A DNA stretch of 64,000 nucleotides from an uncultured Verrucomicrobiota bacterium (GTDB lineage: Bacteria; Verrucomicrobiota; Kiritimatiellia; RZYC01; CAZAYP01): positions 82,725-146,724 of the forward strand of contig CAZAYP010000002.1 in the NCBI GenBank assembly GCA_964489425.1, read 5' to 3'. Shown here one piece after another: positions 1,201 to 58,788 of this stretch. Numbering within the stretch: the first letter of the stretch is position 1; each line of letters starts with the position of its first letter. The translations under genes were made by a program, and so were the position numbers. The notes under the pieces are model-generated. The model ran no database searches, was not told the DNA's origin, and worked only from the letters and a program-made list of their open reading frames with translations.

Positions 1201-1408
1201 GGCCTGCCCTCCTTAAAAAGTGGATTCACTATGGCAGGTGCGCCTGGGCCTTGCAATCCTATATTTGCCGGTTGCAATACGCGCGCGGATGCTGGGCCGC
1301 GGCATCCCTTGGGTGAGCGCCAAGATATCCGGGGCTGAAAAAAGTTGCGCTATCCATAGTGCGCGGACATACTGCTGCCTGGCTTTACCCAATGGAGGAG
1401 GTTGTACC

Positions 1409-4400
1409 ATGAAAAAATATATTTCATCGATTTCTGCAAGCGGGTTGCTGCTGTGGCTGGCGCTGGCAGGGGCGGTGCAGGCGGAATCCTACCGCGGCGA
1501 TCTGAACGCCTGGGGCACCAGTTGGATGGCCCAGGACACGGCGTTTGGGAGCCTGTGGAAGGTGACCGTGACCGCGGCCGCCACGACGGCCACCTCCACC
1601 TATAAATTCGATCAGGATGGCGACTGGAACCCGCAGTGGGGCATGCGCACGGGCTACACGACCAATGCCGTGGCCAACAGTTCCATCGGCCGCACGCGGG
1701 CCAGCCTGGATCTCGGCGGGGATCCGGGCAACCACACCAACAGCGTGAGCGCCGGAAAACGCTACACTTTTGTCATGGAAGGGGCCCCGGATTGGTGGGA
1801 CCGGCGCTACGTGATCATGGAGACGGATGCGGACCCCATCAACATCCTCAACGTGTTTGATGACAGCGCCAACCGCTGGACCAACAGCGTCACGGTCAAC
1901 ATCCAGCTCAGCGCTAGCAAAAGCGCCCAGGAAACCATCTGGGTGCGGTTCAGCAAGGACAGTTGGGCGTCCAGCCAACTGGCGCCGCTGGCGGCCGGGT
2001 CGGGCACAAACTACGCGGCGACCATCTCCGGCACGCCGGCCGGGACGAACGTGTCCTACTACGTGTTCACCTCCACCATGCCTTCCAACATCCTGCCCAA
2101 CTCCTTTGACCTTTGCACCCTGCGCGGCAAGACGCTGGGCCTCGGCACCAACTATTCCTACAGCACCGCGTTCGGCAACTGCTGGCACTTTCCCGGCAAC
2201 GCCGAGCCCTCGGGCGCGTACATGCGCAATCCCACCAACCCGGCGGCCGACGAGGCCGTGTTCATCTACACCGGCAACTATGTTCCGGACGGCAACCAGA
2301 CTGGCGGCACGCTCTATTACCGCAAATCCGATGTGGCGGCCTGGACCGCGACCAACTTGAGCTACGATTCACTCAGCGGCGACAACAAGTATTGGAAAGC
2401 CGATATCCCGGCGGCGACGTACAGCGCCGGCGACACGGTCCAGTACTACCTGGCCGTCACCTATTCCGACCGCTGCCCAACCTACCTGGGCACGACCAAT
2501 GCGGGCGTGGGGCTGGTCAAGTACGGTTACGCCACCAACGCGCAGCTCCGCCCGTTTTCGTTCACCTACACGGCCCCGGTGGCCGACCTGGGCAACGCCT
2601 GGCACATGCCCGACAACTACGAGCCTGCCGGCGCCTACATGCGCAACCCGCGCACCCCCTACACCAACGACGATGTCTACGTGTATAACGGCAACCAGTT
2701 CCAGGGCGGCGGAAACCCCGGCGACCAGACGGGCGGCACCCTGTATTACCGCTTGCGGCCCGCCGGCGGCTGGCAGTCCACGAACCTGGCGTTTGACCTT
2801 GAAACCGGCAACAACAAGTACTGGAAAAGCATGATCCCCAAGGGGACGTTCCGGGCCACCAACGAGGTCGATTACTACCTGAAAATCACTTACAACGATC
2901 ATGACGATACCTATCTTGGCACCACGAATAGCGGGACATCCTGCCAGACGTATTCCCTGGCCGCGGACGCCCAGGCCCACCCGTTCATGTTCGCCTATGG
3001 CGGCGACCCGGGCACCGAGGCGGGGTTCATGTGGCACGCCAGCAACCGCGTCAGCCTCGGCAGCGGCAACGTTCAGGTCTGGGTCAAAATTGGCTACGCC
3101 CAGGGCAGTGGCTCCAACCGCTGGGTGGACAACGCCGTGATCTATTACACCACCAACGGCACGGACCCGGCCATCACCGGCAAGGGCGTGCCTGGCAATG
3201 CCAGCACCTTCGTCCAGGCCATGACGTTTGACCACATGGAAGAAGACTCGTTCGAGGACGGTGACGCCATGTGGTGGGTGGGCACGGCCACCAACCTGCC
3301 GCAGAGCGACGGCTCGGAAATCCGCTACAAGATCGGGTCATGGAACGGATCGGGCACGGAGCGGTTTGCGGAATACAACAGCGTGGGCGGCACGCCCAGC
3401 GCCATCTTCAACTTCTCGCTGTTCGTGGCCGGCGCCGCCAACCTGATGGTCAACGGCAAGAACGCGGACTACACCGCCACCAAGCTGTTCATCGATGAAA
3501 TCGCCGGCGAGACCCAGGCGGTTGTGGTCGTGTACACGCCCGGGGTCGGTGGCGCCTCCAACGTGCAGGTGTACTGCAACCTCAACCGGCGCGACCAGGT
3601 CAATGTGGACTACACCAACCAATACATCCGTGCCGACGGCTATGCCGACGGCATCAAGCCGCCCGATGGCAACCTGATCACGCCTGCGGATACCGGGGCA
3701 TACTACACGGCTTTTGCCATGACAGCGGGCGGGGGCGGCACGTACTACTGGACCGGGCGCGTCACCCGCTGCGGTGCCTACCGCATCACCGCCCGCTACC
3801 AGAAGGACGCGCCGGCGGCCACCAACTGGACCTGGTACTCCACGGGCAGCATCCGTGACCACGCCGTGGTGGTGTCGCCCCGCAAAATCCATGAGCTGAC
3901 CATGTACGAGCTGAACACGCTCACCATCAAGGCGGCGGGGGATTCCGAAGGCGGCCGCAGCACGTTCAAGGACCTGCTGGCCGGCGACCAGGACAGCTTT
4001 ACCAACTTCAACCTGGGTTACCTGAACAAGATCCAGGCCAACTGCCTGTGGTTCCAGCCCATCCATCCCAATGCCGAGACCACGCGCGGCAACCCCGGCG
4101 CCTGCGTGCCCGGCAGCCCGTATGCCACGCGCGATTACTTCGCGGTCTCGAAATGGTACGGCGACGCCACCACCGAGGACGACGCGCTCGCGGAGTTCAC
4201 CAACTTCGTGGCCGCCTGCGACGCCTATACCGGCACCGTCGGCACCATCAACATCATGCTCGACGGCGTGTTCAACCACACCGCGTGGGACGCCGAGTTC
4301 GGCAACGCCGGCGTGACCTTCGGGTTCGCCACCAACAAGGACGACAAGATCGGCTGGTTCAAGCCCTCCTGGTATTCGCTCTGGACCGATTACGGCGAGC

Positions 4401-6361
4401 CGGGCACGTACTTCCACACCGTGTACAGCAACGACTTTGCCACCGCGCCGGACCGCGGCGACTTCGGCAAGTGGGACGACGTGACCGAGTTGTACTACGG
4501 CAAGTATAGCGCCCTCGTGCGCCACAACCCGGACAACAACGGCGACTACCTGAACGAGGGCGACGTGTATGACTTCACCGGCATGGGCACCAACACCATG
4601 GACCTGTGGAAATATATCGGCTACTACCCCGAATACTGGCTCCGGCAGACCGGCCACTGCGGCACCAACAGCAGCCCGGTGGACGGCGCATATGCCGCGC
4701 GCCTAGCCCGCGACAACCGCGGCCTGGACGGGTTGCGTTGCGACTTCGGCCAGGGCCTGCCGCCCCAGGCCTGGGAGTACATCATCAATCGCACGCGGAG
4801 CATCAAGTGGAACTTTGTGTTCATGGCCGAGACGCTTGATGGCGGCGTGCCGGGCTATCGATCCAACCGCCACTTTGACGTGCTCAACGAGAACCTCGTG
4901 TTCAAGTTCACCCAGGAGCACATCAGCAACTCGTGGGAGTTCCGGCAGGCGCTGGAAGACCGGCGCACCTCGTACAGCGGCGGCGCCATCCTGCTCAACC
5001 TGACCGGCCACGACGAGGTCATGCCGTACAACGACTGCTGGATGACCGCGTCGCGCTACGGCGCCGTGTCCATGGTGGATGGCATCCCCATGATTTTCTA
5101 CGGCCAGGAACAGGGCATCCAGGCCTACGCGGGCAACGAGGGCTCCATCGCCAACACCGGGTTCAAGAAGTTCGAGCTGAACTTCGGCAAGTACATCCCG
5201 GACTTCAAACAGTGGAACCAGCTCACCGTCTGGCAGCAAACGCCGCCCAATAGCGTTGGGATGGCGCAGTGGTACGGCCGGGTCAACTGGGCGCGGCTCA
5301 ACAGCGCCGCGTTGCAGAGCCCCAACCGCTACTTCTTGAGTCGCACGGCCGGCGGCGATAACGCGCGCATCCTGGCCGTGGCCAAGTATGAGAGCTACGG
5401 CGCGTCACCCACAAACAGCGACGTGGTGCTGGCGTTTGCCCTGATTCTGAACGACACGCATGACGACGCCAGCGACACCTACGACCTCCAGGGCGCCTGG
5501 GCTTCGCTGGGCATGAGCACGTCCAAGTATTACAACGCGCGCAACCTGGCCGCCAGCGACGCATCCGCGTACCTGTGGCCTTCCAACAGGCTCGGCGCGG
5601 AGATCTATAACAACGGCATCTGGGTCAACCTCACCTCGGACAAGAACGGGCACACCATCACCGACGACGGATCCCTGGTCCAGTACCTCAAGGTGGAGGA
5701 GTTTGATCCGCCCTCGGAATACAAGATTGTGGCCACGGCCGGCGCTAACGGCACCATCACGCCGTCGGGCGACGTGCTGGTGCCCGCCGGCGGCAGCACC
5801 AGTTTCGTGGTCCGGGCGGCCACGTTCTACCGCATCGCCGCCGTGGCGACCAACGGCAACGCGATCAGCGCGGTGTTCAACAATACGTCCACCAACTACA
5901 CGTTTACGTGGACCAGCGTGAACGCCACCGGTGTCATCGCCGCCACCTTCACGGACCAACTGGCCTCCAGCAATACGCCCGTAGCCTGGCTGGCCGGCTA
6001 TTATCCCGGCGCCACGAACTACGATCAGTTGGCGCTGAGCGATACGGACAACGACTTGCTCGCGGCCTGGCAGGAGCGGATTGCCGGCACCGTGCCGACC
6101 AACCGCCTCTCCATGCTCGAGGCCACCGTGAACTACAACGCTGCGCCCGGCGTGCCCAACGTGGTGCGCTGGACCGGCTCGGACCAGGCGGGCCGCATGT
6201 ACCGCGTGTACTGGGGCGGTGACCTGTTCCGCGGCGTGACCAACCTGGCGCAGGACAACATTACCAACGCCTACCCGGCCTTGAATGTCTACACCGATGC
6301 GGTCCGCGGCGCCACGGCCACGGGCATCTTCTACCGGATCGGCGTGCGGATTGCGAATTAG
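1409..6361 (+). CDS. Giant secreted GH13-family alpha-amylase-like glycoside hydrolase with N-terminal triplicated beta-modules and a C-terminal FN3-like module
   Basis: ATG at 1409 preceded by GGAGGAG; signal peptide MKKYISSISASGLLLWLALAGAVQA. GH13 catalytic regions DGVFNHTAWD, GLRCDFGQGLP, FMAETLDG, LTGHDEV. Three ~140-aa repeats starting WHFPGN / WHMPDN / MWHASN (about 2170-3350). The ORF-track start at 1220 is an unsupported upstream extension. Confidence 0.9.
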   Translation: MKKYISSISASGLLLWLALAGAVQAESYRGDLNAWGTSWMAQDTAFGSLWKVTVTAAATTATSTYKFDQDGDWNPQWGMRTGYTTNAVANSSIGRTRASLDLGGDPGNHTNSVSAGKRYTFVMEGAPDWWDRRYVIMETDADPINILNVFDDSANRWTNSVTVNIQLSASKSAQETIWVRFSKDSWASSQLAPLAAGSGTNYAATISGTPAGTNVSYYVFTSTMPSNILPNSFDLCTLRGKTLGLGTNYSYSTAFGNCWHFPGNAEPSGAYMRNPTNPAADEAVFIYTGNYVPDGNQTGGTLYYRKSDVAAWTATNLSYDSLSGDNKYWKADIPAATYSAGDTVQYYLAVTYSDRCPTYLGTTNAGVGLVKYGYATNAQLRPFSFTYTAPVADLGNAWHMPDNYEPAGAYMRNPRTPYTNDDVYVYNGNQFQGGGNPGDQTGGTLYYRLRPAGGWQSTNLAFDLETGNNKYWKSMIPKGTFRATNEVDYYLKITYNDHDDTYLGTTNSGTSCQTYSLAADAQAHPFMFAYGGDPGTEAGFMWHASNRVSLGSGNVQVWVKIGYAQGSGSNRWVDNAVIYYTTNGTDPAITGKGVPGNASTFVQAMTFDHMEEDSFEDGDAMWWVGTATNLPQSDGSEIRYKIGSWNGSGTERFAEYNSVGGTPSAIFNFSLFVAGAANLMVNGKNADYTATKLFIDEIAGETQAVVVVYTPGVGGASNVQVYCNLNRRDQVNVDYTNQYIRADGYADGIKPPDGNLITPADTGAYYTAFAMTAGGGGTYYWTGRVTRCGAYRITARYQKDAPAATNWTWYSTGSIRDHAVVVSPRKIHELTMYELNTLTIKAAGDSEGGRSTFKDLLAGDQDSFTNFNLGYLNKIQANCLWFQPIHPNAETTRGNPGACVPGSPYATRDYFAVSKWYGDATTEDDALAEFTNFVAACDAYTGTVGTINIMLDGVFNHTAWDAEFGNAGVTFGFATNKDDKIGWFKPSWYSLWTDYGEPGTYFHTVYSNDFATAPDRGDFGKWDDVTELYYGKYSALVRHNPDNNGDYLNEGDVYDFTGMGTNTMDLWKYIGYYPEYWLRQTGHCGTNSSPVDGAYAARLARDNRGLDGLRCDFGQGLPPQAWEYIINRTRSIKWNFVFMAETLDGGVPGYRSNRHFDVLNENLVFKFTQEHISNSWEFRQALEDRRTSYSGGAILLNLTGHDEVMPYNDCWMTASRYGAVSMVDGIPMIFYGQEQGIQAYAGNEGSIANTGFKKFELNFGKYIPDFKQWNQLTVWQQTPPNSVGMAQWYGRVNWARLNSAALQSPNRYFLSRTAGGDNARILAVAKYESYGASPTNSDVVLAFALILNDTHDDASDTYDLQGAWASLGMSTSKYYNARNLAASDASAYLWPSNRLGAEIYNNGIWVNLTSDKNGHTITDDGSLVQYLKVEEFDPPSEYKIVATAGANGTITPSGDVLVPAGGSTSFVVRAATFYRIAAVATNGNAISAVFNNTSTNYTFTWTSVNATGVIAATFTDQLASSNTPVAWLAGYYPGATNYDQLALSDTDNDLLAAWQERIAGTVPTNRLSMLEATVNYNAAPGVPNVVRWTGSDQAGRMYRVYWGGDLFRGVTNLAQDNITNAYPALNVYTDAVRGATATGIFYRIGVRIAN

Positions 6362-16740: not shown

Positions 16741-16769
16741 TTAACAAGCTCGGGCCGCTTATGTATGAT
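16741..16769 (+). promoter_or_regulatory. Candidate sigma70-like promoter (TTAACA-17-TATGAT) in the AT-rich divergent intergenic region, driving the gene at 16852
   Basis: Hexamers at 16741-16746 and 16764-16769. The 200-bp intergenic region is about 42% GC against a 65% background. Confidence 0.3.
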
Positions 16770-16851
16770 ATATTTAACGAAGAGTCCCTGAGGGTGTACT
16801 GATATGCAAAATGGGCACAACAGGCAGACTGGCATCCTGACGGTGGAGAAC

Positions 16852-19800
16852 ATGGCCATGACGAGACGCACGATTGTTTTTTTGGCGGTGGTGGCGGCGG
16901 TCATCAGTGCCGCGGGATGGTTTCCCCAGGAAGCCCGCGCCGAGGCTATGCTGCAGTATTTCAACACCAGCTACGCCGAAATTACGGACAAGATGCCGGA
17001 ACTGGCCGAGGCCGGATACTCCTCGATCTGGCTGCCGCCACCCACCAAGGGCAGCGGCGGGTTGTCCGTGGGGTATGACCTGTGGGATCCGCTCGACATC
17101 GGCGGCAAGGACCAGCGCGGCAGCATCCGCACCCGCTACGGCACCGAGGCCGAGTTGATGATCCTGCTCGAAACCGCGCACCGGTTCGGCATTCGCATTT
17201 ACTTCGACAACATCATGAATCACCGTGCGTTCGACATCCCGGGGTACAACGAGGGCACGGACATTTACATCTATCCGGGCATGGTGCCGGAGGATTTCCA
17301 CCTGCGCGTGACCGAGGAAGGCTACTATCGCAAGTGGGACAACTGCCGCGACTGGAACAGCACCTGGCAGGTGCAGAACCTGGGCCTGGCCGACCTGATC
17401 GACATCGCCCACGAAACCCCCAACGACAACTTTGGCGCCAACGAGGGCGATGACCACCCGAAAATCAGCTTCATTCGCCATCCCAACAATCCCGAGTATT
17501 ACCTGGACACGGATTTGCCCATCAGCGTCGGATATGGAATCTACAGTTGGTCCGAGTACACCTTTGCCAACAAGGAACCCTATGACGACGTGGGCTATAC
17601 CAACGCCTCCGCCGTGTTTGTGTCGGCGGCCGTGGGCAACGGCAAGTTCGACTGGGAAGACCTTAACGCCAACGGCCAGCACGATGTGGGCGAGACGGGC
17701 GAGTCGTTCGACGATACCGGCCTGGATCCCTCCCGCTGGACCAGTGCGGATCGCGGCTACGGCGACGGCAAGTACAACATGGGCAACCCCGGCTACGAGG
17801 ATGTGGGCGCCTACCTGATCCGCGCCGGGCGCTGGCTCATGGATTACACCCGGGCGGACGGCCTGCGGCTCGACGCGGTCAAGCATGTGCCGGCCTACTT
17901 CTTCGGCGATTACGGCAGCGATACCAGCGGCAATGGCTACTGCGGCGGCGCCCAGGTCCAGTTCAACGTCAGCCGCGGTTTTTCCGACTGGGACAACCAT
18001 CGCGACACGGTCTTCAACACCGAGGGCAACCGCGACGATGCCATGATGTTCGGCGAGCATCTGGGCGAGCCGCCGGGCTATGGCGACTATCTCGGCCGCG
18101 GCATGCGGCTGGTCGACAACCCCCTGCGCAACGAGTTCAACAGCCGCCTGGGCAGCCCGTGGAACGGCCTGAGCGGTTATGACCAGTCCGGCTACGGCGG
18201 CTTTTCCGCCGCCTGCGGCGTGATGCACGCCCAGAGCCACGACAACGACTACGCCTCGCGCCGCGAGCTGCAGCATGCGTTCTATTTCACCCGCGATGGA
18301 CTCGGCCTGCTCTACACCGACGGCAACCACCATGCCGAAACCCTGGGCGAGAGCGGCGGCGCGTTCCCGCGCCATGCCAACACCGCGTTCCTCGGCCAGT
18401 GGGGCGACCTGCGCATCCCCAACCTGCTCTACATCCACGAGCAATTCGGCCGCGGCTACCAGAAAGGCGTGTGGTCGGACGGCGACTACGTGGCCTACCA
18501 GCGCATGGACTGGCGCCAGGGCGGCAGCACCGACGGCGACAAGGTTGTCATGCTGATCATGATCAACGACGACTATTCCGGCGGCCAGGCGCGCGACATC
18601 CGCGGCAGCATCAGCTTCGGCCATACCCCGTTCGTGGACGATGCCTATCTCTACAACTACTCCACCTACGGCGGCGGCTTTTACACCTATGCCTCGGCGC
18701 TCAACACCGTGATCGTGCCGGCCGGCGGCTACTTCGTGTTTTCGTGGCGCACGCCCGAGGAATCGGCGCTGTGGTCGGGCTTCGGCGGCGACCCGGTCAC
18801 ATTTTATGAGAACGGCCGGCAGGCGGGCACGATGTCCTACACCCGCACGGATGGCCCGGACGGCGACGCCAACTACAATCCTTACGGCGTGGCCGACACC
18901 AACGCGGCGGATTACTCTTACACCTACACCATCCCGCGCGTGACCTCGTCCACCAACCTGCGGATCGTGGCGCGCGCGGACGGGTCGGCGGCCAACGTGC
19001 TGCTGCGCCTGGACGGCGGCGTGGACCTGGACGGCGACGGCCGCGACAACCCGCCGGCCTTGTCCTCGGACGTGTACCTCGGCTTCGAACAACCGAGCTT
19101 CGTGAAGCGCATTTACAAGGAAAAGTTCGCCGCCGCCGACTCGGCCCGCAACCGGATCGGGTCCGCCGGCGCCGAGACCTACCACATGACCATTGGCTCG
19201 ACCGGCTACCGCACCAACTACAGCAACGGTGCCAACGACTGGGACAACAGCGAAACCGCCATGTGGATCTGGCACAACCCGCAATCCACCACTGATCTTG
19301 GCCCCAATCATTTTACCCCCGCGCCGGATAGCGCCGCCGGCACCTCGATCACCGTGTGGGTCAAGTCCGGAAACCAGTTCAACATGAACAACGTGGCCCT
19401 GTACTACACCACCAACGGCACCACCTGGCCCGAGGGCGCCGGCGGCGAGGGGTACGAGCAGACGCGCGTGGTGCCGTTCGCCTGGGACCACAACCAGTAC
19501 GAGTCCACCACCAACGACTGGTGGAAGGCCACCATCCCCGCCTTGCCCGCCGGCACCGTGCTGCGCTACAAGATCGGCTGCTACAAGCAGCAGGGCGAGG
19601 GGACCTGGTCCGTCACCTGGCCGGCCGATGCCGGCGCCGTGGCCACCAAGCTGAACCGCATGGGCGTGTGGGAAGTCACCAACATCAACGCCGCCGCCTT
19701 GACCGTGTACCCGCACAACGATTACGGCAACAAGTACACCGGGCTCCGGGAAGGGTTCCACCTGCTGACCGCGCGCGCGTTCCTCGAGCGCGATGCCCGC

Positions 19801-22800
19801 GCCGCACTCTACAACACGTTCAAGCAGACGTTCTACTACGACGCGGCTCGGCCCGGCGGCTACATCCAGTACCCGGCCGCGGACGGCGACGCGGTGGGCG
19901 GCCAGCAGTACGGCGCCGTGGTGCGGTCGGACCATTCCGTGCGCGAAGCGTGGTTCCACATCGATGATGCTGATCCGAGCAACGACGACACGGCCACCGG
20001 CGTGGCCAACGGCAACGGCAACGGGTTCGAGCCATACACGGACGGCAACAACGACGGCGGCTACGACCTCGGCGAAGCCTTTGAGGACCTGAACCAGAAC
20101 GGCTCGTGGGACAGCAACATCGGCCAGTCCTGGGTGCACGCGTACCAGACCACGCCCGGCGACATGGCCACCGACTATCCCAAGGAGTGGCGGTTCACTT
20201 ATAACAACATTCCCGCCGGCGGCAGCAACGCGACCATCGCCGTGCGCCTGCGCGAGTGGTCCAGCGCCGAACGCGCCGTGTTCACCAACTACACCGACAC
20301 CACCGGCCACTTCACCACGCTCACGCGCACGGTCAAGACCTGGGGCCCGGACGTGCGCATGTTCATCGCCTGGCCCCAGCAGGACGGCGACACCGTGGGC
20401 GAAGGCTACGTGATGAAAACCTACTTCACCAAGTCGCTGGCCGACGGCCTGAGCGAGCAGGACCTCATCAACCGGTTCCTCATCAAGATCCAGAGTTCCG
20501 AGTCCGGCCGCACCACCGGCGGCGTGGCCCAGAGCCGCAGCGCGTACTCCATCGACTGGGACGAGGGCGATTACTATGCGCTGCTCTTCACCCTGCCGAA
20601 CCTGTACAACGGCGATCCCAACTGGCTGCATGGCCTCGAAGTCACGCATGAACGGCCCAGCATGGCTGACTTGGTGGCCACGCGCCTGGTCAAGGCGGCC
20701 CAGGCCGAAGAAGCCCCGTATGTCGCCATTATCGAGCCGCCCGAGTACGGCTCGGACGGCAGCCCACACGAGATCATCATCCCGGACGAAGCTGCGCCCA
20801 GCCCGGAAGAGTTGCGGACCACGGTCCGCGTCGAAACCGCCACCAACGTGGCCACGTTGAACATCTCGTTCGGGTCGTGGCCGGCGGACTATTTCCCCGG
20901 CGGCGGCATGAGCTTCGTCAGCAACAGCATTGTCGGCAGCACCAAGTATTGGGACTACGATTGGTCCAACCTCGTAGCCGGCACGTACCGGTTCACCGCC
21001 TGGGTGTTCACGCCGTCGGGCGCTTCCAACTCAGCCTCGCGCAACGCCACGGTCGTGCAGCGCGAGTGGGTCAGCGCCAATACCAATGATTTGGACGACG
21101 ATGATGACGGGTTGCTGGACGATAACGAGACCACCGCCGAGCCCCTGCCAAGCTTGCGTGAAATCAATCCGGAACCCAACCCGGAGAACTGGGACAACGG
21201 CGAAGTCCATATCCATTACGCCTATGGCAAGTCCCTGCCGCAAAGCCCGGACAGCGACGCCGACGGCCTGTCCGACGGCCTCGAGGTCGGCTGGCGCAAC
21301 CCGGCCTCGGCCACCGACACCAACGCCGACACCAACGGCGACGGCTGGCCGAATTTCCGCGCGGACTATGATCCGCCCTTTTACAACACGCTGGACAACG
21401 AGGGCAAGGTGCCGGGCGTCAACAGCCGCAGCCAGGGCGGCGACCGCGCGCTGCAGCTCTACGGCTCGACCACGGATCCCTCCAACCCGGACACGGATTA
21501 CGACGGCCTGCCCGACGGCATCGAGGACGCCAACCGCAACGGCTGGGTGGAGGGCGACGGCGCCGTGATCGATCCCACGTGGGACCCGTGGCTTGCGCGC
21601 TCGTGGCCCAACGACCGCCTGGATGTCGGCGAGACCTGGACGGAAACAGATCCCAACGATTCAGATACGGACAACGACAACTTGAGCGACGGCAACGGCG
21701 AAGACAAGGATTTTGACGGCCGGATCGCCGGCGACGCCAACACCAACCGCGTGTACAACGCAGGCGAAGAGTGGAGCGAGACCGATCCGCTCAATGCCGA
21801 CACGGACGACGACGGCCTGACGGATGGCTGGGAGGTCCAGTATAACTTCGATCCATTGGACGACGGCAGCAACAGCCTGCGCACCGCCGTGGCCGCGGAC
21901 GGCAACGTGACGAACGGTGCGGCCGGCGACCCGGACGCCGACACGTTCGACAACGCCACCGAGCTCGCCAACGGCACCAACCCGCGCTATGCCGATACCG
22001 GCGTGCCGCCGCCCGAAGGTACCATCACCATCGGCCGCGGGCCGGCGCTCGGCATCACCGGCGGCGTCACCAACTACCAGGAATTCACCGACTGGACCGC
22101 CGCGGATCTGATCGCGCTGGACGATTACAACAACGGCGGCAGCCAGGCCGTGGACATTTACCGCGCCTGGGACGGGTTTGACAGTTCGCGCGACCTGGTC
22201 GCGTTTTATGCCCACGACGGCGGCGATCTGGCCCTGGGCGGCGATGGCATGTTCTATTTCCGCGTCGATTTGCAGGATCTCCAGGCCCTGGCCGAAGACG
22301 CCTACGTGGATATTTACGTGATCGTGGACATGAACAGCCCGACCATCGGCGAGTACAGCCTGCCCGATTCCGCCGACCTGGTCACGGAAATGAAGTGGGA
22401 GGCCGCCGTGGCCGTTTACGGCGGCAACAACGGCCGCGTGTACGTGGATACCGAGCGCGGCAACAACTCGCTGTCGGCCGTCGATGACCTGGCGCCCTTC
22501 GGGGTGGTGGCACGCAACCAGGCCACAGCCAGCGGCTTTGGCCAGGCCTATTTCAACTCCGATCTCGACGCCGTGGAGTTCTCCATCAGCCGCCAGGCGC
22601 TGCGTGACGCCGGCTGGAACGGGCTCAACCCGAACCAGCTCAACTACCAGGTCTACACCACCAAGGACGGCACCCAGAACAGCCCCTTGGGCCCGGGCGA
22701 CATCGGCGGCCGCAACGACCTGCGCGACTCGATCACCGACGACTGGGTCTGCTCCGATTACTGGCGCGACCAGAACAACATCATCGCCAACGGCCGCCTC

Positions 22801-25329
22801 TACGGCCACCTCGGCCGGTCCGCGGACAACGATTTCGGCAAGAGCGCCAAGATCGCCATGGTGATGCACGGCAACCAGGCCATCCAACCCGGCAGCGAGA
22901 TCCAGGACTTGGTAAACAACGGCGTGGGCGCCGGCTATCACCGCGCGCTGGACGTGCACGAGGTGTTTAGCCAGCCGATGAACCTGCACATCACGCCCAC
23001 CCTGGCCGCGGCCCTGGAGTGGGCCCGGGTGGACACGAATGCCAGCGCCACCTGGCGCGACGGTCCCACGTTCAACGACCGGCTCCGCACGCTGGTGGCC
23101 ACCAACGTGGTGTGGCTGCTCGGCAGCACGTTTTCGGATCACATCCTGCCGTACTTCACGTCCGCATTCAACGCGGACAACGCCAGCCTGGCCGGCGAGT
23201 TTCTGCACACGATTTACGGCGCCCAGTTCACCGGCAGCACCCCGTTCTGGCCCGCGGAGCGCGTGCTCGATGACGATGTGTTCGCCAAGATCCAGGCCAT
23301 GGGATTCGGCTTTACCATCATGGATGCCGACACCCACATGTGGGAATGGTTCGGCCGCTACGCCGCGCTCGGCGACGACGGGTACCGCGTCAACCGCGTG
23401 CATGGCGTGTACTGTTTTGTGATCAACAACGCCGCGTGTGAATACCGGTTCGCCAACACCGACAGCGGGCTGGGCACGGCCCTGCGCGAGCTGCTCAACC
23501 GGCGCGCCCGCAGCAGCACCCAGGACCAGTTGGTCACCATCCTGAGCAATTGGGAGGATTTCGGCAGCAGCTCCCAGGCCGACGCTTATGACCGCAACCT
23601 GCGCTGGCTGGCCAACCACCCCTGGACCCAGCTGGTCAGCCTCGAGGAAGTCGCGGCCGGCGAAGTGGACACCGACGGCGACGGCAACGGCAACTACTTC
23701 GGCAACATCGATCGTGGCTCACCCACGCTCTCCAAGCAGGGCCACAACTGGGTCAACCATTCCACCCAGGGCGATTACGACAGCTGGTATTGCGGGTCCG
23801 GGCAGGAGGAAAGCCTGCAGAACAAGCAGTTCGATATCCGGCCGGGTACGCAAGTGCCCACGGCGTACGGCATGTTGTACTTCACCGGCATCATCAGCCA
23901 GGCCTGGGAGCGCGTCAACGCCATCGCCAACTCCAACGTCGCGCAACTGGCGCGCGCCGTGCTGCACGCCTCGCTGTTCGAGACCGCGTTCCACGACGAG
24001 GACAACAACAACCTGAGCCGCTTCAGCACCGGCGACTACATCTACCCCGACTCCTCCTCCAACAGCCTTGCCGCGTTCGCTGCCAACGCGCAATCCCAGA
24101 CCCGCCTGGCCGCCATGTACGCCCGCGTGGACACCTGGGCCGCGTCGGCTGCGGGCGTGACCACGCCGCAGGCTTCCGCGGAGGACGTGGACCTGGACGG
24201 CGAGAGCGAGTACCTGCTCTACAACAACCGCGTGTGCGCCGTGTTCGAGCGTATCGGCGGCCGCTTGGTCGCGGCCTGGTACCGCGACGTGGTGGACAGC
24301 CAGGTGTACCAAGTGGTGGGCAACGCCGCCGGCTACAGCGGCGCGGCCACGGAAGAGGAGGGGACCTACAACGTCGAGACCAACCGCGACGTGGTGGCCT
24401 ACCGCACCTCCTGCCTCAAGGACTGGTGGCTGGCGCCCGCTGGCACCGCCCAGTACGTCAACGATCTGTACGCCGCGGCCGGCGTGGCCGGCGGCTGGCG
24501 GTTCACCTCCAGCGACGGCAAGATTCAGAAAACCATCACGCTGGCCACCAACACGCCCAAGCTCGAAGTGGCCTACGTGCTGTCCGGCGTCGGCGCCACC
24601 AGCCTGTATGTCCGCAACGGGCTGTCGCCGAACCTGTACAATCTGCTGCTGCGCGGCCAGCGCACCCTGGCCCCGGCGCGCGCCAGCGGCGGCGTGGTGA
24701 GCGTGGCCGAGACCAACTACGCGACCACGGTGACCGCGTGGCTCGGGTATGGCGATGCGGGCCACGCCGCGGGCTACATCGATTCCGCGGTGGACGACAA
24801 CCCCGGCTCGGGCGTCAGCTTTTACACGCTCAACATGCGCAACCAGGCCCAGACCCACCAGGTCGAGCTGGTGGGCACCAACACGTTTACCTTTGCGCTG
24901 GGGTTCAGCGCCGGCGCGTCCGACTGGGACAGCGACGGCATGCCGAACACGTACTCCGACCGCTACGACCTGGAGGCTCATCCGCAGGGCGGCGCTGACC
25001 AGGACGCCGACGGGGATCGCATTTCCAACAAGGACGAGTACGTGGCCGGCACCAGCCCGCTGGACGGCACCGATTATCTCTACGTGAACGATCCGACGCT
25101 CCAGGGCAGCAATATCCGCCTGCTGTTCCCTACGGAACTGAACCGGCGGTACTTCGTCTGGTATAAAAACAACCTGTTGCGCGATGCCACATGGAGCTTG
25201 GCCACGCCGGCCGGCCTCAGCGGCACTGGCGCCGGTTACCAGTGGACGGATGATGGCGCGCATACCGCGCCCCCGCCCGGCGTGGCCACCAGCCGCTATT
25301 ACCGGATCGAAGTGGCTCTGCCGGACTAG
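16852..25329 (+). CDS. Giant (2825 aa) secreted multi-enzyme: GH13_5-like alpha-amylase, putative CBM module, TSP3-type calcium-binding repeats, GH57-like domain, C-terminal FN3-like module
   Basis: GGAGAA then ATG at 16852; signal MAMTRRTIVFLAVVAAVISAAGW. N-terminus LQYFNTSYAEITDKMPELAEAGYSSIWLPPPTK...GYDLWDPLDIG...RTRYGTEAELM...IYFDNIMNHRA...GLRLDAVKHV is characteristic of liquefying alpha-amylases. Dx(D/N)xDGxxD repeats at about 21090-21990. Segment 22840-23500 carries GH57-like motifs (HGNQAIQP, FWPAERVL, IMDADTHMWEWFG). Confidence 0.9.
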   Translation: MAMTRRTIVFLAVVAAVISAAGWFPQEARAEAMLQYFNTSYAEITDKMPELAEAGYSSIWLPPPTKGSGGLSVGYDLWDPLDIGGKDQRGSIRTRYGTEAELMILLETAHRFGIRIYFDNIMNHRAFDIPGYNEGTDIYIYPGMVPEDFHLRVTEEGYYRKWDNCRDWNSTWQVQNLGLADLIDIAHETPNDNFGANEGDDHPKISFIRHPNNPEYYLDTDLPISVGYGIYSWSEYTFANKEPYDDVGYTNASAVFVSAAVGNGKFDWEDLNANGQHDVGETGESFDDTGLDPSRWTSADRGYGDGKYNMGNPGYEDVGAYLIRAGRWLMDYTRADGLRLDAVKHVPAYFFGDYGSDTSGNGYCGGAQVQFNVSRGFSDWDNHRDTVFNTEGNRDDAMMFGEHLGEPPGYGDYLGRGMRLVDNPLRNEFNSRLGSPWNGLSGYDQSGYGGFSAACGVMHAQSHDNDYASRRELQHAFYFTRDGLGLLYTDGNHHAETLGESGGAFPRHANTAFLGQWGDLRIPNLLYIHEQFGRGYQKGVWSDGDYVAYQRMDWRQGGSTDGDKVVMLIMINDDYSGGQARDIRGSISFGHTPFVDDAYLYNYSTYGGGFYTYASALNTVIVPAGGYFVFSWRTPEESALWSGFGGDPVTFYENGRQAGTMSYTRTDGPDGDANYNPYGVADTNAADYSYTYTIPRVTSSTNLRIVARADGSAANVLLRLDGGVDLDGDGRDNPPALSSDVYLGFEQPSFVKRIYKEKFAAADSARNRIGSAGAETYHMTIGSTGYRTNYSNGANDWDNSETAMWIWHNPQSTTDLGPNHFTPAPDSAAGTSITVWVKSGNQFNMNNVALYYTTNGTTWPEGAGGEGYEQTRVVPFAWDHNQYESTTNDWWKATIPALPAGTVLRYKIGCYKQQGEGTWSVTWPADAGAVATKLNRMGVWEVTNINAAALTVYPHNDYGNKYTGLREGFHLLTARAFLERDARAALYNTFKQTFYYDAARPGGYIQYPAADGDAVGGQQYGAVVRSDHSVREAWFHIDDADPSNDDTATGVANGNGNGFEPYTDGNNDGGYDLGEAFEDLNQNGSWDSNIGQSWVHAYQTTPGDMATDYPKEWRFTYNNIPAGGSNATIAVRLREWSSAERAVFTNYTDTTGHFTTLTRTVKTWGPDVRMFIAWPQQDGDTVGEGYVMKTYFTKSLADGLSEQDLINRFLIKIQSSESGRTTGGVAQSRSAYSIDWDEGDYYALLFTLPNLYNGDPNWLHGLEVTHERPSMADLVATRLVKAAQAEEAPYVAIIEPPEYGSDGSPHEIIIPDEAAPSPEELRTTVRVETATNVATLNISFGSWPADYFPGGGMSFVSNSIVGSTKYWDYDWSNLVAGTYRFTAWVFTPSGASNSASRNATVVQREWVSANTNDLDDDDDGLLDDNETTAEPLPSLREINPEPNPENWDNGEVHIHYAYGKSLPQSPDSDADGLSDGLEVGWRNPASATDTNADTNGDGWPNFRADYDPPFYNTLDNEGKVPGVNSRSQGGDRALQLYGSTTDPSNPDTDYDGLPDGIEDANRNGWVEGDGAVIDPTWDPWLARSWPNDRLDVGETWTETDPNDSDTDNDNLSDGNGEDKDFDGRIAGDANTNRVYNAGEEWSETDPLNADTDDDGLTDGWEVQYNFDPLDDGSNSLRTAVAADGNVTNGAAGDPDADTFDNATELANGTNPRYADTGVPPPEGTITIGRGPALGITGGVTNYQEFTDWTAADLIALDDYNNGGSQAVDIYRAWDGFDSSRDLVAFYAHDGGDLALGGDGMFYFRVDLQDLQALAEDAYVDIYVIVDMNSPTIGEYSLPDSADLVTEMKWEAAVAVYGGNNGRVYVDTERGNNSLSAVDDLAPFGVVARNQATASGFGQAYFNSDLDAVEFSISRQALRDAGWNGLNPNQLNYQVYTTKDGTQNSPLGPGDIGGRNDLRDSITDDWVCSDYWRDQNNIIANGRLYGHLGRSADNDFGKSAKIAMVMHGNQAIQPGSEIQDLVNNGVGAGYHRALDVHEVFSQPMNLHITPTLAAALEWARVDTNASATWRDGPTFNDRLRTLVATNVVWLLGSTFSDHILPYFTSAFNADNASLAGEFLHTIYGAQFTGSTPFWPAERVLDDDVFAKIQAMGFGFTIMDADTHMWEWFGRYAALGDDGYRVNRVHGVYCFVINNAACEYRFANTDSGLGTALRELLNRRARSSTQDQLVTILSNWEDFGSSSQADAYDRNLRWLANHPWTQLVSLEEVAAGEVDTDGDGNGNYFGNIDRGSPTLSKQGHNWVNHSTQGDYDSWYCGSGQEESLQNKQFDIRPGTQVPTAYGMLYFTGIISQAWERVNAIANSNVAQLARAVLHASLFETAFHDEDNNNLSRFSTGDYIYPDSSSNSLAAFAANAQSQTRLAAMYARVDTWAASAAGVTTPQASAEDVDLDGESEYLLYNNRVCAVFERIGGRLVAAWYRDVVDSQVYQVVGNAAGYSGAATEEEGTYNVETNRDVVAYRTSCLKDWWLAPAGTAQYVNDLYAAAGVAGGWRFTSSDGKIQKTITLATNTPKLEVAYVLSGVGATSLYVRNGLSPNLYNLLLRGQRTLAPARASGGVVSVAETNYATTVTAWLGYGDAGHAAGYIDSAVDDNPGSGVSFYTLNMRNQAQTHQVELVGTNTFTFALGFSAGASDWDSDGMPNTYSDRYDLEAHPQGGADQDADGDRISNKDEYVAGTSPLDGTDYLYVNDPTLQGSNIRLLFPTELNRRYFVWYKNNLLRDATWSLATPAGLSGTGAGYQWTDDGAHTAPPPGVATSRYYRIEVALPD

Positions 25330-25611: not shown

Positions 25612-25716
25612 CCAGATCCGGCTTTGCGTCGCCGTGTCTTGGCGAGATATTATTCTGGTCCCGATTCCTGCATGGTGGGCTGGACTACCGCTGAAGATCT
25701 GAAGCCAGGTGGGGTG
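25612..25716 (+). repeat. Repeat family rep2, intact copy; it overlaps and encodes the last ~19 codons and the TAA stop of the histidine-kinase gene
   Basis: Aligns with the split copy at 6540-6615 and 6823-6850. On the minus strand it reads ...PGFRSSAVVQPTMQESGPE*. Confidence 0.7.
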
Positions 25717-28700
25717 GCGGCGGCCTTGGCAGCGCCTGCTTCCGGCAGAACGCGTTGCAGCACGGCGATCAGTTGATCCGGTTTAATCGGTTTCGCGATG
25801 TAGTCGTCCATGCCCGCCGCCAGAAACCGCTCGCGGTCGCCCGGCATGACATGTGCGGTCATGGCCACTATCGGCAGGCGGAGAACGGATGAAGGATGAG
25901 GGATGAAGGATGAATCCTCCGCCTTCCGATCTCTGACTTCATCCGTCATCCTTCCGCCTTCATCCTTTTCTTTGGCGCGAATGCGCCGCGTCGCTTCCAG
26001 GCCATCCATGACCGGCATTTGGATGTCCATGAAGACGAGATCGTAGTCGTTCTTTTCCAGCGCGGCGAGCGCCTGCGCGCCATGTTCCGCCACCTCCACA
26101 CGCGCGCCCAGCTTGCGGAGCAGAAACCGGGCCGCAAGCTGATTGGTCGCGTCGTCCTCGACCAGTAAAATCCGGGCGTTGAATTGCAGGTCAGCGCTGG
26201 TTCTCGCGCCCTGCGGCTGGCGCTCGATGTCTGTTGGCGCGCAAACGGTCAGCGGGAGGGTCAGCACGAACGTCGAGCCCTGGCCCAACGCGCTTTGCGC
26301 CGTGATGTCGCCGCCCATGAGCCGGGCCAGATCCCGCGCAATGGCCAGCCCCAACCCCGTGCCGCCAAAACGCCGGATATTGGAATCGTCCACCTGCATG
26401 AAGGGGGAAAACAGTGCGTCGAGCTTCTCCGCCGGGATGCCGATGCCCGTATCAACCACCGAAAAGCGCAGCCAGATTGTTGGTTTTTCGTTCTTCGTTC
26501 TTTGTTCTACGTTTATCCTTAATCCGTTATCCTTCATCCTTTCAACGCGCACCGCCACCGTGACGCGCCCTTGTTCCGTGAACTTGATCGCGTTGCCAAT
26601 CAGATTGAACAGAATCTGGCGCAGGTGTTCACCGTCGCCACGCACGGCTTGGGGCGCATCCTCCGCTACGTCGCACCCGAATTCCAGGCGCTTGTCGCGG
26701 GCCTGAAGTTCCATGACGGCGGCGATATCCCCCAGCAAGGTTCGCACGTTGAAATCGGATTCGCGAATCTCCATTCTTCCGGCTTCGATCCGGGAAAGGT
26801 CCAGAATCTCATTGATCACATGGAGCAGCGCCTGGCCGCTTTTTTCGATGGTCTGCACAAATAGCCGCTGTTCGTCGTCAAGCTGCGTAGCGCCCAGCAG
26901 GTGGGCAAACCCAAGCACCCCGTTCATGGGCGTGCGGATCTCATGGCTCATGTTGGCCAGAAAACGGCTCTTCGCCACCGTCGCCGCCTCCGCCGCCTCC
27001 TTGGCCTCGCGCAGCGCATCCTCTGCCCGTTTGCGCTCGGTGATGTCCTGGAGGGACCCCGACAGGCGGACGACGCGTCCGTCTTTCTTCTCGGCTTGTC
27101 CGTGGGCCAGGCACGTCCGGGTGGCGCCGTCCATGCAGAGGGCGTGCAGCTCGAGCTCGTAGGGGGTGCCTTCGCGGAGGGCGGCTGCCACGGCTTCGTT
27201 CAGCTGGCGGAAATCCTCCGGCGTATAGAGGGAGGAATGCTCCGCGAAGGAGGGGGCGCCCAGGTCCGGGGCGCGCCGGAAGATGCGGAAGAGTTCGTCC
27301 GACCAGATGACGGTGTCGCTGGCCACCTCCCATTCCCAACTGCCGACGTGGGCGAGGGCTTCTGTTTGCTCGAATATGGCCTGCTTGCGTTGCAGATCTT
27401 CCTCGACCCGCTTGCGCTCGGTGATGTCAGCGAAGACACAGGCGAACTGGTTGGGCGTGGGCCGGAAGGCCGACACCATGAAGATTTTTCCCAGTGCGCC
27501 GGAGTGGTTCTCGAAGGAGGCTGGTTCACCGGTCAGGGCCACCTTCCCGTAGGTTTCGATCCAGTGGCGCTCGGTGCCCGGCAGGACTTCCAAGACGGTC
27601 TTGCCGACAACATCCTGCGCCTTCAAGCCAGTCATGCGCTCGAAGGCCGGGTTGACGGCCAGAAAACGATAGTCCACCGGTTTTCCCGCCGCATCACAAA
27701 CGATCTCATGCAGGGCGAAGCCATCCAGCATCTCGCGGAACAGCGTCTGGTATTGCTGCTCGGCCCGGTGGTAGGCCGTCATGTCAACCGCCGAAGCTGC
27801 CACATACTGGGGCGCGCCCCGTTCATCCTTGAGGAGTACCCCGTTCATCAGCATGGGAAATTCCGTCCCGTCCCGATGGAGATGCCAGACCTCCGTGGGC
27901 TTGAAATGACCCTCCCGCAGCATGGTGGCAATAAGATGTTCCACCAGATCCATTCGTTCCGGGCTGTGAAACACGGAAAGAGGACGGCCCATCAGTTCCT
28001 CGGGAGTGTATCCGTGGATACTGGCAAAGAACCGGTTTACATACAGCAAATGGCCTTGAAGATCGGCAATCGCCTTGCCATAAACCGCATGGTCTGAAAT
28101 CGTCTTGAATCGCCTGTTCTCCTCCTCGGCACGTTTTCGCTCTGTGATGTCGCGCAGGAAACAGAAGAACAAGCCCAACTTGAACGTCGTGCTGACTTCA
28201 ACCTCGATGATCTTGCCATCCTTGCGGCGGTGCTTGGTCTCAAAGCGGTCTATGCCATCCTTGCGATTCGCTTCAATATGCTTGGCCGTCTCATCCGGGG
28301 TTTCTGCGGCGTCCAGATCGGAAATGCACATGGCGAGCAGTTCCTCCCTGCTGTAGCCGCTCATCCGGCAAGCAGCCTCGTTGACATCCAGAAACCGCCC
28401 CTGAACGTCCATCAGCCAGAAGCCATCCATGGCTGCGTGAAGGATGTTTCGGTGCCGCCACTCGCTTTCCCGCAACGCCTCATCGGAGCGTTTTTGCTCC
28501 GTGATGTCGCGCACCGTTCCGGCCATCCGGATCGGTTGTCCGGCATCGTCGAAGAAGGTCTCCGCGACTTCATGAACCATCCGTTCTGATCCATCTGGCC
28601 AAACGATGCGATGTTCCACATTAAAGGGTTTTCGTTCACACCATGCAGCCTGCGTCACTGTATTCATCATGGATCGGTCATCGGGATGAACACATTCGAA

Positions 28701-39582: not shown

Positions 39583-39593
39583 AGGGAGCGTAT

Positions 39594-48470: not shown

Positions 48471-48556
48471 AGAAAACGAGGAATGAGGAATGATGAACGA
48501 TGACCATCGGACGATAGGTTTCATAAGCATTGGCAGATTTTCCAGCGAGGCCCAAT

Positions 48557-51762: not shown

Positions 51763-51836
51763 CAACGATGGCCGCCCGTGGCAGTAAAACGCGAACAATG
51801 ACGCGGGCCCGGCCCGCAAGAGGGAGTGCCAGCAAA

Positions 51837-58626: not shown

Positions 58627-58788
58627 GCGGCCACTATAAAACATGACGCCCGGGGCCGCAATGCCGGCGTGTTGGTTCCCGGTCGCGCGTGGTTCAGCGC
58701 TTTCTTTTCCACGATCACTTGGCTATAACTTCTCGTGTCCGGTGGATGGAATCCGGCGACTATAACCGATGAAGATGGGAGCTGAATT

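Follow-up and report, generated by a model that had tools for sequence, protein, structure and literature searches.

Can a single secreted bacterial protein carry working sites of two distinct alpha-glucan-active enzyme families? This question is raised by a stretch of 64,000 nucleotides from an uncultured Kiritimatiellia bacterium of the phylum Verrucomicrobiota (assembly GCA_964489425.1, contig CAZAYP010000002.1, positions 82,725 to 146,724; hereafter the window), in which one gene, at 16852-25329, encodes a polypeptide of 2825 residues. A first-pass annotation, made from the letters and their translation, had described this polypeptide as a fusion of a liquefying-type alpha-amylase of glycoside hydrolase (GH) family 13, a run of calcium-binding thrombospondin type 3 (TSP3) repeats and a domain resembling family GH57. 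Our analysis shows that the catalytic residues of the GH13 head are complete and conserved, and that the C-terminal part is indeed related to GH57. In the copy studied here, however, the GH57-like part keeps the nucleophile and has lost the canonical proton donor.

The fusion and its distribution

The open reading frame (ORF) runs uninterrupted from 16804 to 25329 on the plus strand, on which all features of the protein lie (2841 aa, stop codon TAG). An in-frame ATG at 16852 gives the 2825-residue product; with this start a leader of 30 residues precedes 'EAMLQYF', which is the leader length of the orthologue consensus. The leader (aa 1-30, 16852..16941, MAMTRRTIVFLAVVAAVISAAGWFPQEARA/EA) was read by eye and has a basic n-region, a hydrophobic core and an AxA site. 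It looks like a typical Sec signal peptide, by which the protein would be secreted, and the GH13 barrel begins right at the predicted mature N-terminus, again as in the orthologue consensus. The polypeptide as first proposed was confirmed by the ORF listing, and all the motifs quoted for it stand in the translated ORF at the positions given: DNIMNHRA at aa 119, GLRLDAVKH at aa 337, MMFGEHLG at aa 398 and AQSHDND at aa 460 in the N-terminal part, and HGNQAIQP at aa 2006 (nt 22867), FWPAERVL at aa 2132 (nt 23245) and IMDADTHMWEWFG at aa 2156 (nt 23317) in the C-terminal part.

The fusion is not an artefact of assembly or a chimera, since one NCBI protein is 100% identical to it and many homologues share its full length. 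A database search at E <= 1e-10 gave 816 proteins, and among the matches listed at least 120 are full-length homologues of 2671-3124 aa with 49-71% identity. These come from metagenome-assembled genomes (MAGs) of Kiritimatiellia, Spartobacteria and Chthoniobacteraceae, the nearest relatives being Kiritimatiellia at 68-71% identity. The databases name the protein 'hypothetical' or 'alpha-amylase family', and one JGI entry gives three Pfam names.

A scan with the C-terminal module, using one genome per species, found it in 289 species-level genomes. The carriers include Kiritimatiellia, Lentisphaerae/Victivallales, Verrucomicrobiaceae, Prosthecobacter, Luteolibacter, Akkermansiaceae, Opitutales and Chthoniobacterales, as well as Brevifollis gellanilyticus NBRC 108608, which is in culture. 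The 79 best loci were examined in detail; nearly all of their ORFs that are not cut by a contig end measure 2680-3180 aa and contain region II of GH13. Thus, the fusion of GH13 with the GH57-like module is the rule in these genomes of the Planctomycetes-Verrucomicrobia-Chlamydiae (PVC) group and no oddity of the window. The architecture was initially called unusual, and this holds with respect to the characterised enzymes, which it does not resemble; within the PVC group it is standard in hundreds of genomes.

The GH13 head

The N-terminal domain (aa ~31-535, 16942..18456) is a GH13 alpha-amylase catalytic domain. It matches Pfam PF00128 with 38.5-44.8 bits (cut-off 22) and, among solved structures, the GH13_7-type amylase of P. 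woesei (1mwo, E 1.6e-21), AmyB of H. orenii, 3bc9 and the liquefying amylases of Bacillus (B. licheniformis-type). The alpha-amylase models of NCBIfam of the PRK09441 type (GH13_5) recognise it with 63-108 bits, far under their equivalog cut-offs of 382-804. The solved amylases align with only two segments of the head, aa 43-128 and 305-357; domain B (aa ~130-305) is enlarged and contains a sequence, DLNANGQHD, that resembles a calcium-binding loop.

All four conserved regions of GH13 were located, and their codons checked: DNIMNH (D119, H124), GLRLDAVKH (R339, the nucleophile D341, H345), FGEH (E402) and SHD (H463, D464). Across 180-183 full-length homologues, no substitution is seen at D119, H124, R339, D341, H345, E402 or D464. 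The assignment of the N-terminus to a GH13 amylase was therefore correct; it is probably of the GH13_5/_7 type, and its triad D341/E402/D464 is intact. Because the catalytic and helper residues are complete and invariant family-wide, the GH13 domain is probably the working hydrolase of the protein, as judged from its retaining alpha-amylase residues. Amylases of GH13 subfamilies 5, 6 and 7 (B. licheniformis alpha-amylase, E. coli AmyA/PRK09441, 1MWO) have in common with it the 'MLQYFxxxY' start, the block GYD...D.G......G..RT.YGT and regions I-IV, and differ from it in the enlarged domain B and in the 2300 further residues that follow the catalytic domain here.

Fold and relatives of the C-terminal module

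The C-terminal module was delimited as aa 1720-2690 (970 aa) and modelled with AlphaFold2 from an alignment of 68 homologues (model mb1d9ffd58bb1). The model reached a mean predicted local distance difference test score (pLDDT) of 93.8 and a predicted template modelling score (pTM) of 0.93. In the numbering of the model, residues 1-270 form a jelly-roll and residues 280-535 seven strand-helix units; a helical part follows, and residues 720-970 form a beta-sandwich. More specifically, the jelly-roll beta-sandwich (aa ~1721-1990, 22012..22821) has R1780, D1781, R1804, D1806, W1849 and D1906 invariant in the homologue alignment and gives a weak match to Laminin_G_3 (E 0.006). It is followed by a GH57-like (beta/alpha)7 barrel (aa ~1999-2290, 22846..23721), to which Pfam PF03065, the model, Foldseek, hhalign and the pattern of conservation all point. 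After the barrel come a helical sub-domain (aa ~2291-2436, 23722..24159), seen in the secondary structure of the model and with W2312 and H2381 invariant, and the beta-sandwich that ends the module (aa ~2437-2690, 24160..24921), as in the GH57 4-alpha-glucanotransferase of Thermococcus litoralis (TLGT) and in GH38 enzymes.

Searched with Foldseek against the PDB, the module found TLGT (1k1x) as its best match, with an E of 4.7e-21 over 780 columns that cover the barrel and the beta domain. The GH38 alpha-mannosidases followed at E ~1e-12, and then the further GH57 structures 3p0b (branching enzyme), 7e1y and 9jlq (amylopullulanases), 2b5d (AmyC) and 4cmr. The likeness in sequence is much fainter. 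The Pfam model of GH57 (PF03065, cut-off 21.2) reaches 18.1 bits when the whole protein is scanned and 23.8 bits when residues 1995-2300 are taken alone, and a precomputed PF03065 match is present on many homologues and absent from others. A profile of the whole module found no GH57 enzyme among the PDB sequences, only chance matches of EF-hands to the TSP3 part, and a profile of the barrel alone found no significant match to a solved GH57 there, its best being TLGT at E 0.81. The module is therefore best described, on the combination of a faint sequence likeness with the GH57 fold match, as a deeply branching lineage on the margin of GH57. The proposed relation of the C-terminal region to GH57 thus stands, carried by the score of the isolated domain, the best fold match and the aligned conserved sequence regions (CSRs) 1 and 3.

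The module is not confined to the fusion. Planctomycetes, Sumerlaeia and Kiritimatiellae have stand-alone versions of ~1000-1150 aa, with 30-35% identity, and the representative library contains the module in further architectures. In the library clustered at 50% identity there are ~800 representatives at E <= 1e-30, a count to which the TSP3 repeats contribute a part.

The GH57 catalytic residues

Members of GH57 have in common a (beta/alpha)7 barrel, in which a Glu at strand beta4 (CSR-3) is the nucleophile and an Asp at strand beta7 (CSR-4) the proton donor, and five CSRs in all (Martinovicova & Janecek 2018, PMC6037648). The barrel itself is present, as seen from the seven strand-helix units of the model and from the GH57 enzymes among the best PDB folds. 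For TLGT the five CSRs have been given as HNHQP, GQLEIV, WLTERV, HDDGEKFGVW and AQCNDAYWH (PMC6037648). The family was aligned by hhalign to a composite TLGT reference, assembled from TLGT residues 43-151, the N-terminus of fragment P0269 and a frameshifted Thermococcales orthologue. This composite is not the exact TLGT sequence, but its WLTERV at 120 and HDDGEKFG at 212 agree with the published CSR table (PMC6037648). The alignments had E values from 7e-6 to 1.5e-4.

In CSR-1, H2006-G-N2008-Q2009 pairs with H-N-H-Q, and the segment LHITPTL pairs with VHFSGPL of TLGT. As a side observation, the HGNQ of CSR-1 (nt 22867-22878) is nearer to the 'HGNLQ' of GH57 alpha-galactosidases than to the 'HNHQP' of 4-alpha-glucanotransferases (PMC6037648 supplement). 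In CSR-3, WPAERV pairs with WLTERV both by hmmsearch and by hhalign, which makes E2136 (nt 23257-23259) the equivalent of the TLGT nucleophile E123. In CSR-4, LSNWEDFG (aa 2231-2238) pairs with HDDGEKFG, so that E2235 corresponds to E216 and N2233 (nt 23548-23550) to D214; an Asn thus occupies the position of the canonical proton donor. No convincing counterpart of CSR-2 (GQLEIV) or CSR-5 (AQCNDAYWH) was seen in the hhalign alignments. The model supports this mapping by the strand positions of the two residues, as E2136 comes after beta4 and N2233 lies at the end of beta7. The nucleophile and the proton-donor position are 97 residues apart, versus 91 in TLGT.

The first-pass annotation had also quoted IMDADTHMWEWFG, which includes 'IMDADTH', as a motif reminiscent of GH57. 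As a candidate for the proton-donor region this segment was ruled out: it pairs with 'VVVDDYHF' of TLGT, past strand beta5, and the real CSR-4 is LSNWEDFG. Of the catalytic Glu and Asp that had been proposed for inspection in a structural model, the nucleophile is therefore found where it is expected and the proton donor is replaced. As a consequence, the claim of two catalytic families on one protein is weakened for this copy, since the Asp of CSR-4 is Asn2233.

Conservation in fused and stand-alone relatives

Conservation was assessed in 31 stand-alone sequences, 121 full-length fused homologues and the 79 genome loci. The nucleophile E2136 is Glu in every one of them (31/31, 121/121 and 79/79). 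D2158, H2162 and R2212 are invariant in the stand-alone and the fused proteins, and in the loci they are kept in 76, 79 and 78 of 79, respectively; D2204 and W2234 are invariant in the stand-alone proteins, present in 120/121 fused homologues each and in 78 and 79 of the 79 loci. W2166 is invariant in the 121 fused homologues. Together with H2006, N2008 and R2137, the residues D2158, H2162, D2204, R2212 and W2234 make up the invariant pocket residues that the module has kept.

Position 2233 behaves very differently. All 31 stand-alone proteins have Asp there, whereas the fused homologues have mainly N (43), M (32), D (11), A (10), P (9) or Q (5), and the loci N (28), D (18), A, H, Q and M (5 each), G (4) or S (3). 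The CSR-4 of the stand-alone clade is nearly canonical, FDDWEAF (DDWE in 31/31), and under default hhalign settings its second Asp pairs with D214 of TLGT. In the fused family the composition of CSR-4 follows the lineages. The Kiritimatiellia and Lentisphaerae loci mostly have SNWEDF, TMWEEF, SAWE or SHWE; the Opitutales have LSDWEDF, and several Chthoniobacterales and Verrucomicrobiae have MNDWENF. In Verrucomicrobiaceae, Prosthecobacter and Brevifollis the motif is GSDWSDF, in which the Asp is kept and Glu2235 has become Ser. Seven loci of this Verrucomicrobiaceae type (L049, L056, L070, L078, L079, L082, which is the Brevifollis locus, and L083) fit the pattern G/H/P-S-D-W-S/T-D-F, with Ser or Thr at the equivalent of TLGT E216; this change is the opposite of the one in the Kiritimatiellia branch.

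Since the orthologues of Verrucomicrobiaceae, Opitutales and Chthoniobacterales keep the canonical Asp, the fused family was probably bifunctional ancestrally. It would then have begun with a complete GH57-type site, and the branch to which the window belongs would later have lost the canonical proton donor. In that branch the nucleophile and the pocket appear to have stayed under selection.

The putative stalk and the C-terminal domain

The two enzyme-derived parts are separated by a long region of other kinds of domains. After the GH13 barrel come domain C and then ~7-8 beta-sandwich (Ig-like) domains (aa ~536-1405, 18457..21066). The AlphaFold2 model of this region (m00132384a229) has a pLDDT of 80 and consists nearly entirely of beta-strands; its Foldseek matches are the Ig-like domains of PrgB, an RTX-adhesin tandem repeat, cadherins and alpha-2-macroglobulin. 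One of the sandwiches, with 'YYTTNGT...WWKATIP...LRYKIG' (aa ~833-915, 19348..19596), recurs in a second giant GH13 protein of the window (ORF 1220-6361, aa 617-712; 35% identity, E 6e-7 by BLASTP). A role in carbohydrate binding is possible for this domain, whose CBM20 signal is weak (E 0.037).

The Asp/Asn-rich TSP3-type region follows (aa ~1410-1720, 21079..22011; D 17%, N 10%). Loops of the form Dx[DN]x[DN]Gxx[DN] between aa 1415 and 1660 (nt 21094-21830) number 6 by a strict and 8 by a loose pattern, the latter starting at aa 1415, 1467, 1493, 1547, 1559, 1605, 1628 and 1650; two more lie near the C-terminus, at aa 2691 and 2718. TSP3-type loops are thus present as first described, although the 'about 10' repeats given for this region were slightly generous. 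The Pfam model TSP3_bac (PF18884) scores 18.4-21.8 bits here, under its cut-off of 25, and many orthologues carry the PF18884 flag.

The protein ends with the last two TSP3 loops and a small beta-rich domain that closes with ...RYYRIEVALPD (aa 2691-2825, 24922..25329). A hidden Markov model of these last 135 residues matches the C-terminus of the second GH13 giant (5984-6358, E 6.5e-8) and the ORF at 48530-49417 (E 1.5e-16), so that a domain of ~125-135 aa, made up of two TSP3 loops and a beta domain ending in R[FY]YR, is common to three ORFs of the window. In the representative library the same profile also matches many giant TSP3-rich proteins of 2500-5300 aa, at their very C-terminal ends. 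The domain may serve for sorting or anchoring and may be one of PVC bacteria that has so far escaped description. A link to the pilus-like Amuc_1099 system of Akkermansia was considered and rejected: the NCBIfam score is 23-30 bits (cut-off 50) and derives from the TSP3 loops only, and the 295-aa ORF that shares the domain is no member of Amuc_1099.

Functional interpretation

Taken together, we propose, with a probability of about 0.55, that the gene encodes a secreted, probably surface-retained, alpha-glucan-processing protein, in which a catalytic GH13 head is combined with a glucan-binding GH57 module of the '4-alpha-glucanotransferase (4AGT)-like' kind. The GH13 head, together with the second GH13 protein as its partner, would cleave extracellular starch or glycogen-type glucans. 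The Ig-like beta-sandwiches and the TSP3 loops are predicted to form a stalk or spacer stiffened by Ca2+, and the last 135 residues, which recur in the partner and in another ORF, may retain the protein at the cell surface. The GH57-like module of this copy would not be a second canonical hydrolase or transferase; it would bind an alpha-glucan chain in the preserved -1/+1 pocket and so hold or feed the polymer for the GH13 head and the partner enzyme. Proteins of this sort, in which the nucleophile region is kept and the proton donor is gone (e.g. WLPERV), are a recognised class within GH57 (PMC6037648).

Several points weigh against this proposal. The pocket of the GH57-like module is conserved as strongly as that of an active enzyme, which is surprising for a pure binding role. 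An acidic residue (D or E) is found at position 2236, three residues beyond the lost Asp, in 240/261 (92%) of the sequences without Asp2233, compared with 43/123 (35%) of those that have it. E2235 is conserved too, and a relocated acid/base is therefore conceivable. Moreover, the specificity for alpha-glucans is suggested by family resemblance, and the signal peptide, the function of the stalk, the binding of Ca and the retention at the surface are predictions from the protein sequence.

The first of these points lead to a truly bifunctional protein, in which the GH57-like module is active in this copy as well, with E2136 as the nucleophile and D2236, E2235 or D2204 as the relocated acid/base; it could for example act as a 4-alpha-glucanotransferase and disproportionate what the GH13 amylase releases. 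The invariance of the nucleophile and the pocket, the acid at position 2236, the canonical Asp of the verrucomicrobial, opitutal and chthoniobacterial orthologues and the fact that the top fold match is a 4-alpha-glucanotransferase would all fit such an enzyme. Yet the position of TLGT D214, Asn here, varies among N, M, A, P, Q, H and G in close relatives, which is the pattern of relaxed selection and not that of a catalytic residue, and GH57 'like' proteins without the proton donor have been held to be probably incapable of the typical GH57 action (PMC6037648). The correlation with the acid at 2236 is in addition confounded by phylogeny, as it separates two clades; it could reflect a relocated acid or be a mere clade signature. 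We regard activity of the module in this copy as a possibility to be taken seriously, though a doubtful one. Still more tentative is a generalisation of it, by which these proteins would be a hitherto undescribed class of PVC-wide, two-headed extracellular alpha-glucan machines with GH13 and a deeply divergent GH57-related transferase at opposite ends of a calcium-stiffened stalk, a conserved second GH13 protein as partner, and the acid/base moved to D/E2236 in Kiritimatiellia and Lentisphaerae. If that move is real, the module would represent a new catalytic variant and might define a new GH family or a subfamily of GH57.

It is improbable that the module, as a member of the wider GH57/GH38 fold class, acts on another substrate (an alpha-mannoside, an alpha-galactoside or another polymer), so that one protein would combine two unrelated specificities. 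Such a substrate would suit the GH38 alpha-mannosidases as the second Foldseek group, the resemblance of CSR-1 to that of the alpha-galactosidases (PMC6037648 supplement), and the unrecognisable CSR-2 and CSR-5 of a family whose profile lacks a significant match to solved GH57 enzymes. The GH57 glucanotransferase is nevertheless the best fold by nine orders of magnitude and over 780 columns, CSR-3 is almost identical to that of TLGT, and the nucleophile is the Glu of GH57 and not the Asp of GH38. Furthermore, the HxHxD metal motif of GH38 is absent at strand beta1, and the module shares its polypeptide with one amylase and has a second one as partner. A protein that is mainly structural, a surface protein or adhesin whose enzyme-derived domains only bind and of which neither is catalytic, is very improbable in the face of a GH13 triad and helper residues with the signature of a working enzyme across the homologues, even if the ~900 residues of the Ig-like chain have adhesin-like folds among their matches, TSP3 repeats are a usual mark of surface proteins, there are weak NCBIfam matches to CglD and MtsD, and the gene adjoins that of a giant protein of MBG and Ig-like repeats.

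Comparison with known systems

Large secreted, multidomain amylolytic enzymes of the cell surface, such as amylopullulanases with two catalytic activities and the S-layer- or wall-anchored amylases of Firmicutes, combine a catalytic head with beta-sandwich or CBM-like domains and with a domain for retention at the C-terminus, as is proposed here. The bifunctional amylases known to us are either GH13+GH13 proteins or have a single GH57 site with two activities. In the searchable literature, neither a protein in which GH13 and a GH57-like domain are fused along with TSP3 repeats, nor the module clade, nor the gene pair described below was found. At the same time, the component domains (GH13, GH57-related, TSP3, Ig-like) are all of known kinds, and no new principle is involved.

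The closest structural relative of the module, TLGT (PDB 1K1W/1K1X/1K1Y), shares with it the barrel, the helical part and the C-terminal beta-sandwich, the motifs H-x-[HN]-Q in CSR-1 and W-x-x-E-R-V in CSR-3 and, through the stand-alone clade, a CSR-4 that can be compared directly (FDDWEAF versus HDDGEKF). It differs in that the identity is only 11-12%, that the module has an extra N-terminal jelly-roll of 270 aa, and that the module is part of a predicted extracellular fusion with GH13, a putative Ig-like stalk and TSP3 repeats. With the '4AGT-like proteins' of Martinovicova & Janecek (2018, PMC6037648) our protein has in common that the Glu of CSR-3 is kept and the Asp of CSR-4 is missing. 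Known GH57 members average 360-815 aa (PMC6037648), compared with the 2825 aa of the fusion. Under the terms searched, no member of this clade was found in the survey of 1602 GH57 sequences (PMC6037648). The sole verrucomicrobial outlier of that survey, a GH57 protein of Opitutaceae TAV5, was rejected as a clade member; it has 479 aa and the motifs HANIQ and WNPECS.

The module represents a large clade on the edge of GH57. It offers a natural series for the loss or relocation of the proton donor of a retaining glycosidase, in which the stand-alone proteins and part of the Verrucomicrobiae still have the Asp and the Kiritimatiellia have lost it. With Brevifollis gellanilyticus, a carrier in culture, the family is experimentally accessible. 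The Verrucomicrobiota sensu lato (Kiritimatiellia, Lentisphaerae, Verrucomicrobiae, Opitutae and Chthoniobacterales) are major degraders of polysaccharides in guts, digesters, soils and waters. As a secreted protein of 2800 aa that these classes have maintained at 50-70% identity, it probably has a central part in their handling of alpha-glucans.

Genomic context

The genomic context provides a second association with GH13. The partner gene (1409..6361, plus strand) encodes another secreted giant of ~1650 aa, which has a signal peptide as well. The GH13 domain of this protein is very divergent (Pfam PF00128, 29.3 bits; no match to PDB sequences at E <= 0.001), and the triad is complete (MLDGVFNH, GLRCDFGQG, FMAETLDG, LTGHDE). 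Two domains are common to both proteins, namely the sandwich at aa ~833-915 and the C-terminal domain. In 28/79 genome loci, which span Verrucomicrobiae, Opitutales, Chthoniobacterales and Kiritimatiellia, the next gene downstream of the orthologue, on the same strand, is a homologue of the partner. The two genes therefore form a conserved pair, which in the window is split by the gene for a 2929-aa MBG/Ig giant (7859-16648, minus strand). The latter has 12 MBG repeats (Pfam 819 bits), HYDIN/ASH-type Ig domains, BACON_2 and DUF1573. It sits between the two GH13 giants in the window and not at that position in other genomes, and was for this reason probably inserted into the conserved pair.

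The neighbourhood had further been taken for an alpha-glucan utilisation island. The neighbours named in support of it exist, and the second giant GH13 gene is a truly conserved one. However, the GH31+PA14 enzyme (56083-58644, minus strand) and the 550-aa CBM20-esterase (58789-60441, plus strand) are 31-35 kb away from the fusion gene, with unrelated genes for a PD-(D/E)XK nuclease, a LamG giant, RF3 and an RHS protein in between. In two other genomes, a Spartobacteria MAG and a widespread Kiritimatiellae MAG, the orthologue lies amid housekeeping genes such as SecA, MutS and thiolase. A coherent alpha-glucan island is thus not supported.

Scans for promoters and terminators gave nothing above chance: a single promoter-like site was marked, at 16741-16769, and the stop codon has no terminator close by. 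The immediate neighbours of the fusion gene are the MBG/Ig giant and, on the other side, a PAS hybrid histidine kinase (25650-29300, minus strand). Three MAGs have two full-length paralogues each, on separate contigs (L007 and L023, L010 and L018, L042 and L045). A gene for a Y1_Tnp protein (IS200/REP-associated tyrosine transposase-like) adjoins the orthologue in two unrelated MAGs, one of Spartobacteria and one of the Kiritimatiellae type (L004, 8905-9894; L005, 19018-19512; L006, 19237-19731).

The CBM20-esterase protein also contains a GyrI-like/Cass2 small-molecule-binding domain, an odd combination of domains on one polypeptide of this size. The LamG giant (39435-48470, plus strand) has 3011 aa, three Laminin_G_3 domains and a weak TafC-fimbrial match, and the RHS-repeat protein (51705-56033, plus strand) has 1442 aa. 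The window as a whole is unusually rich in genes for giant surface proteins.

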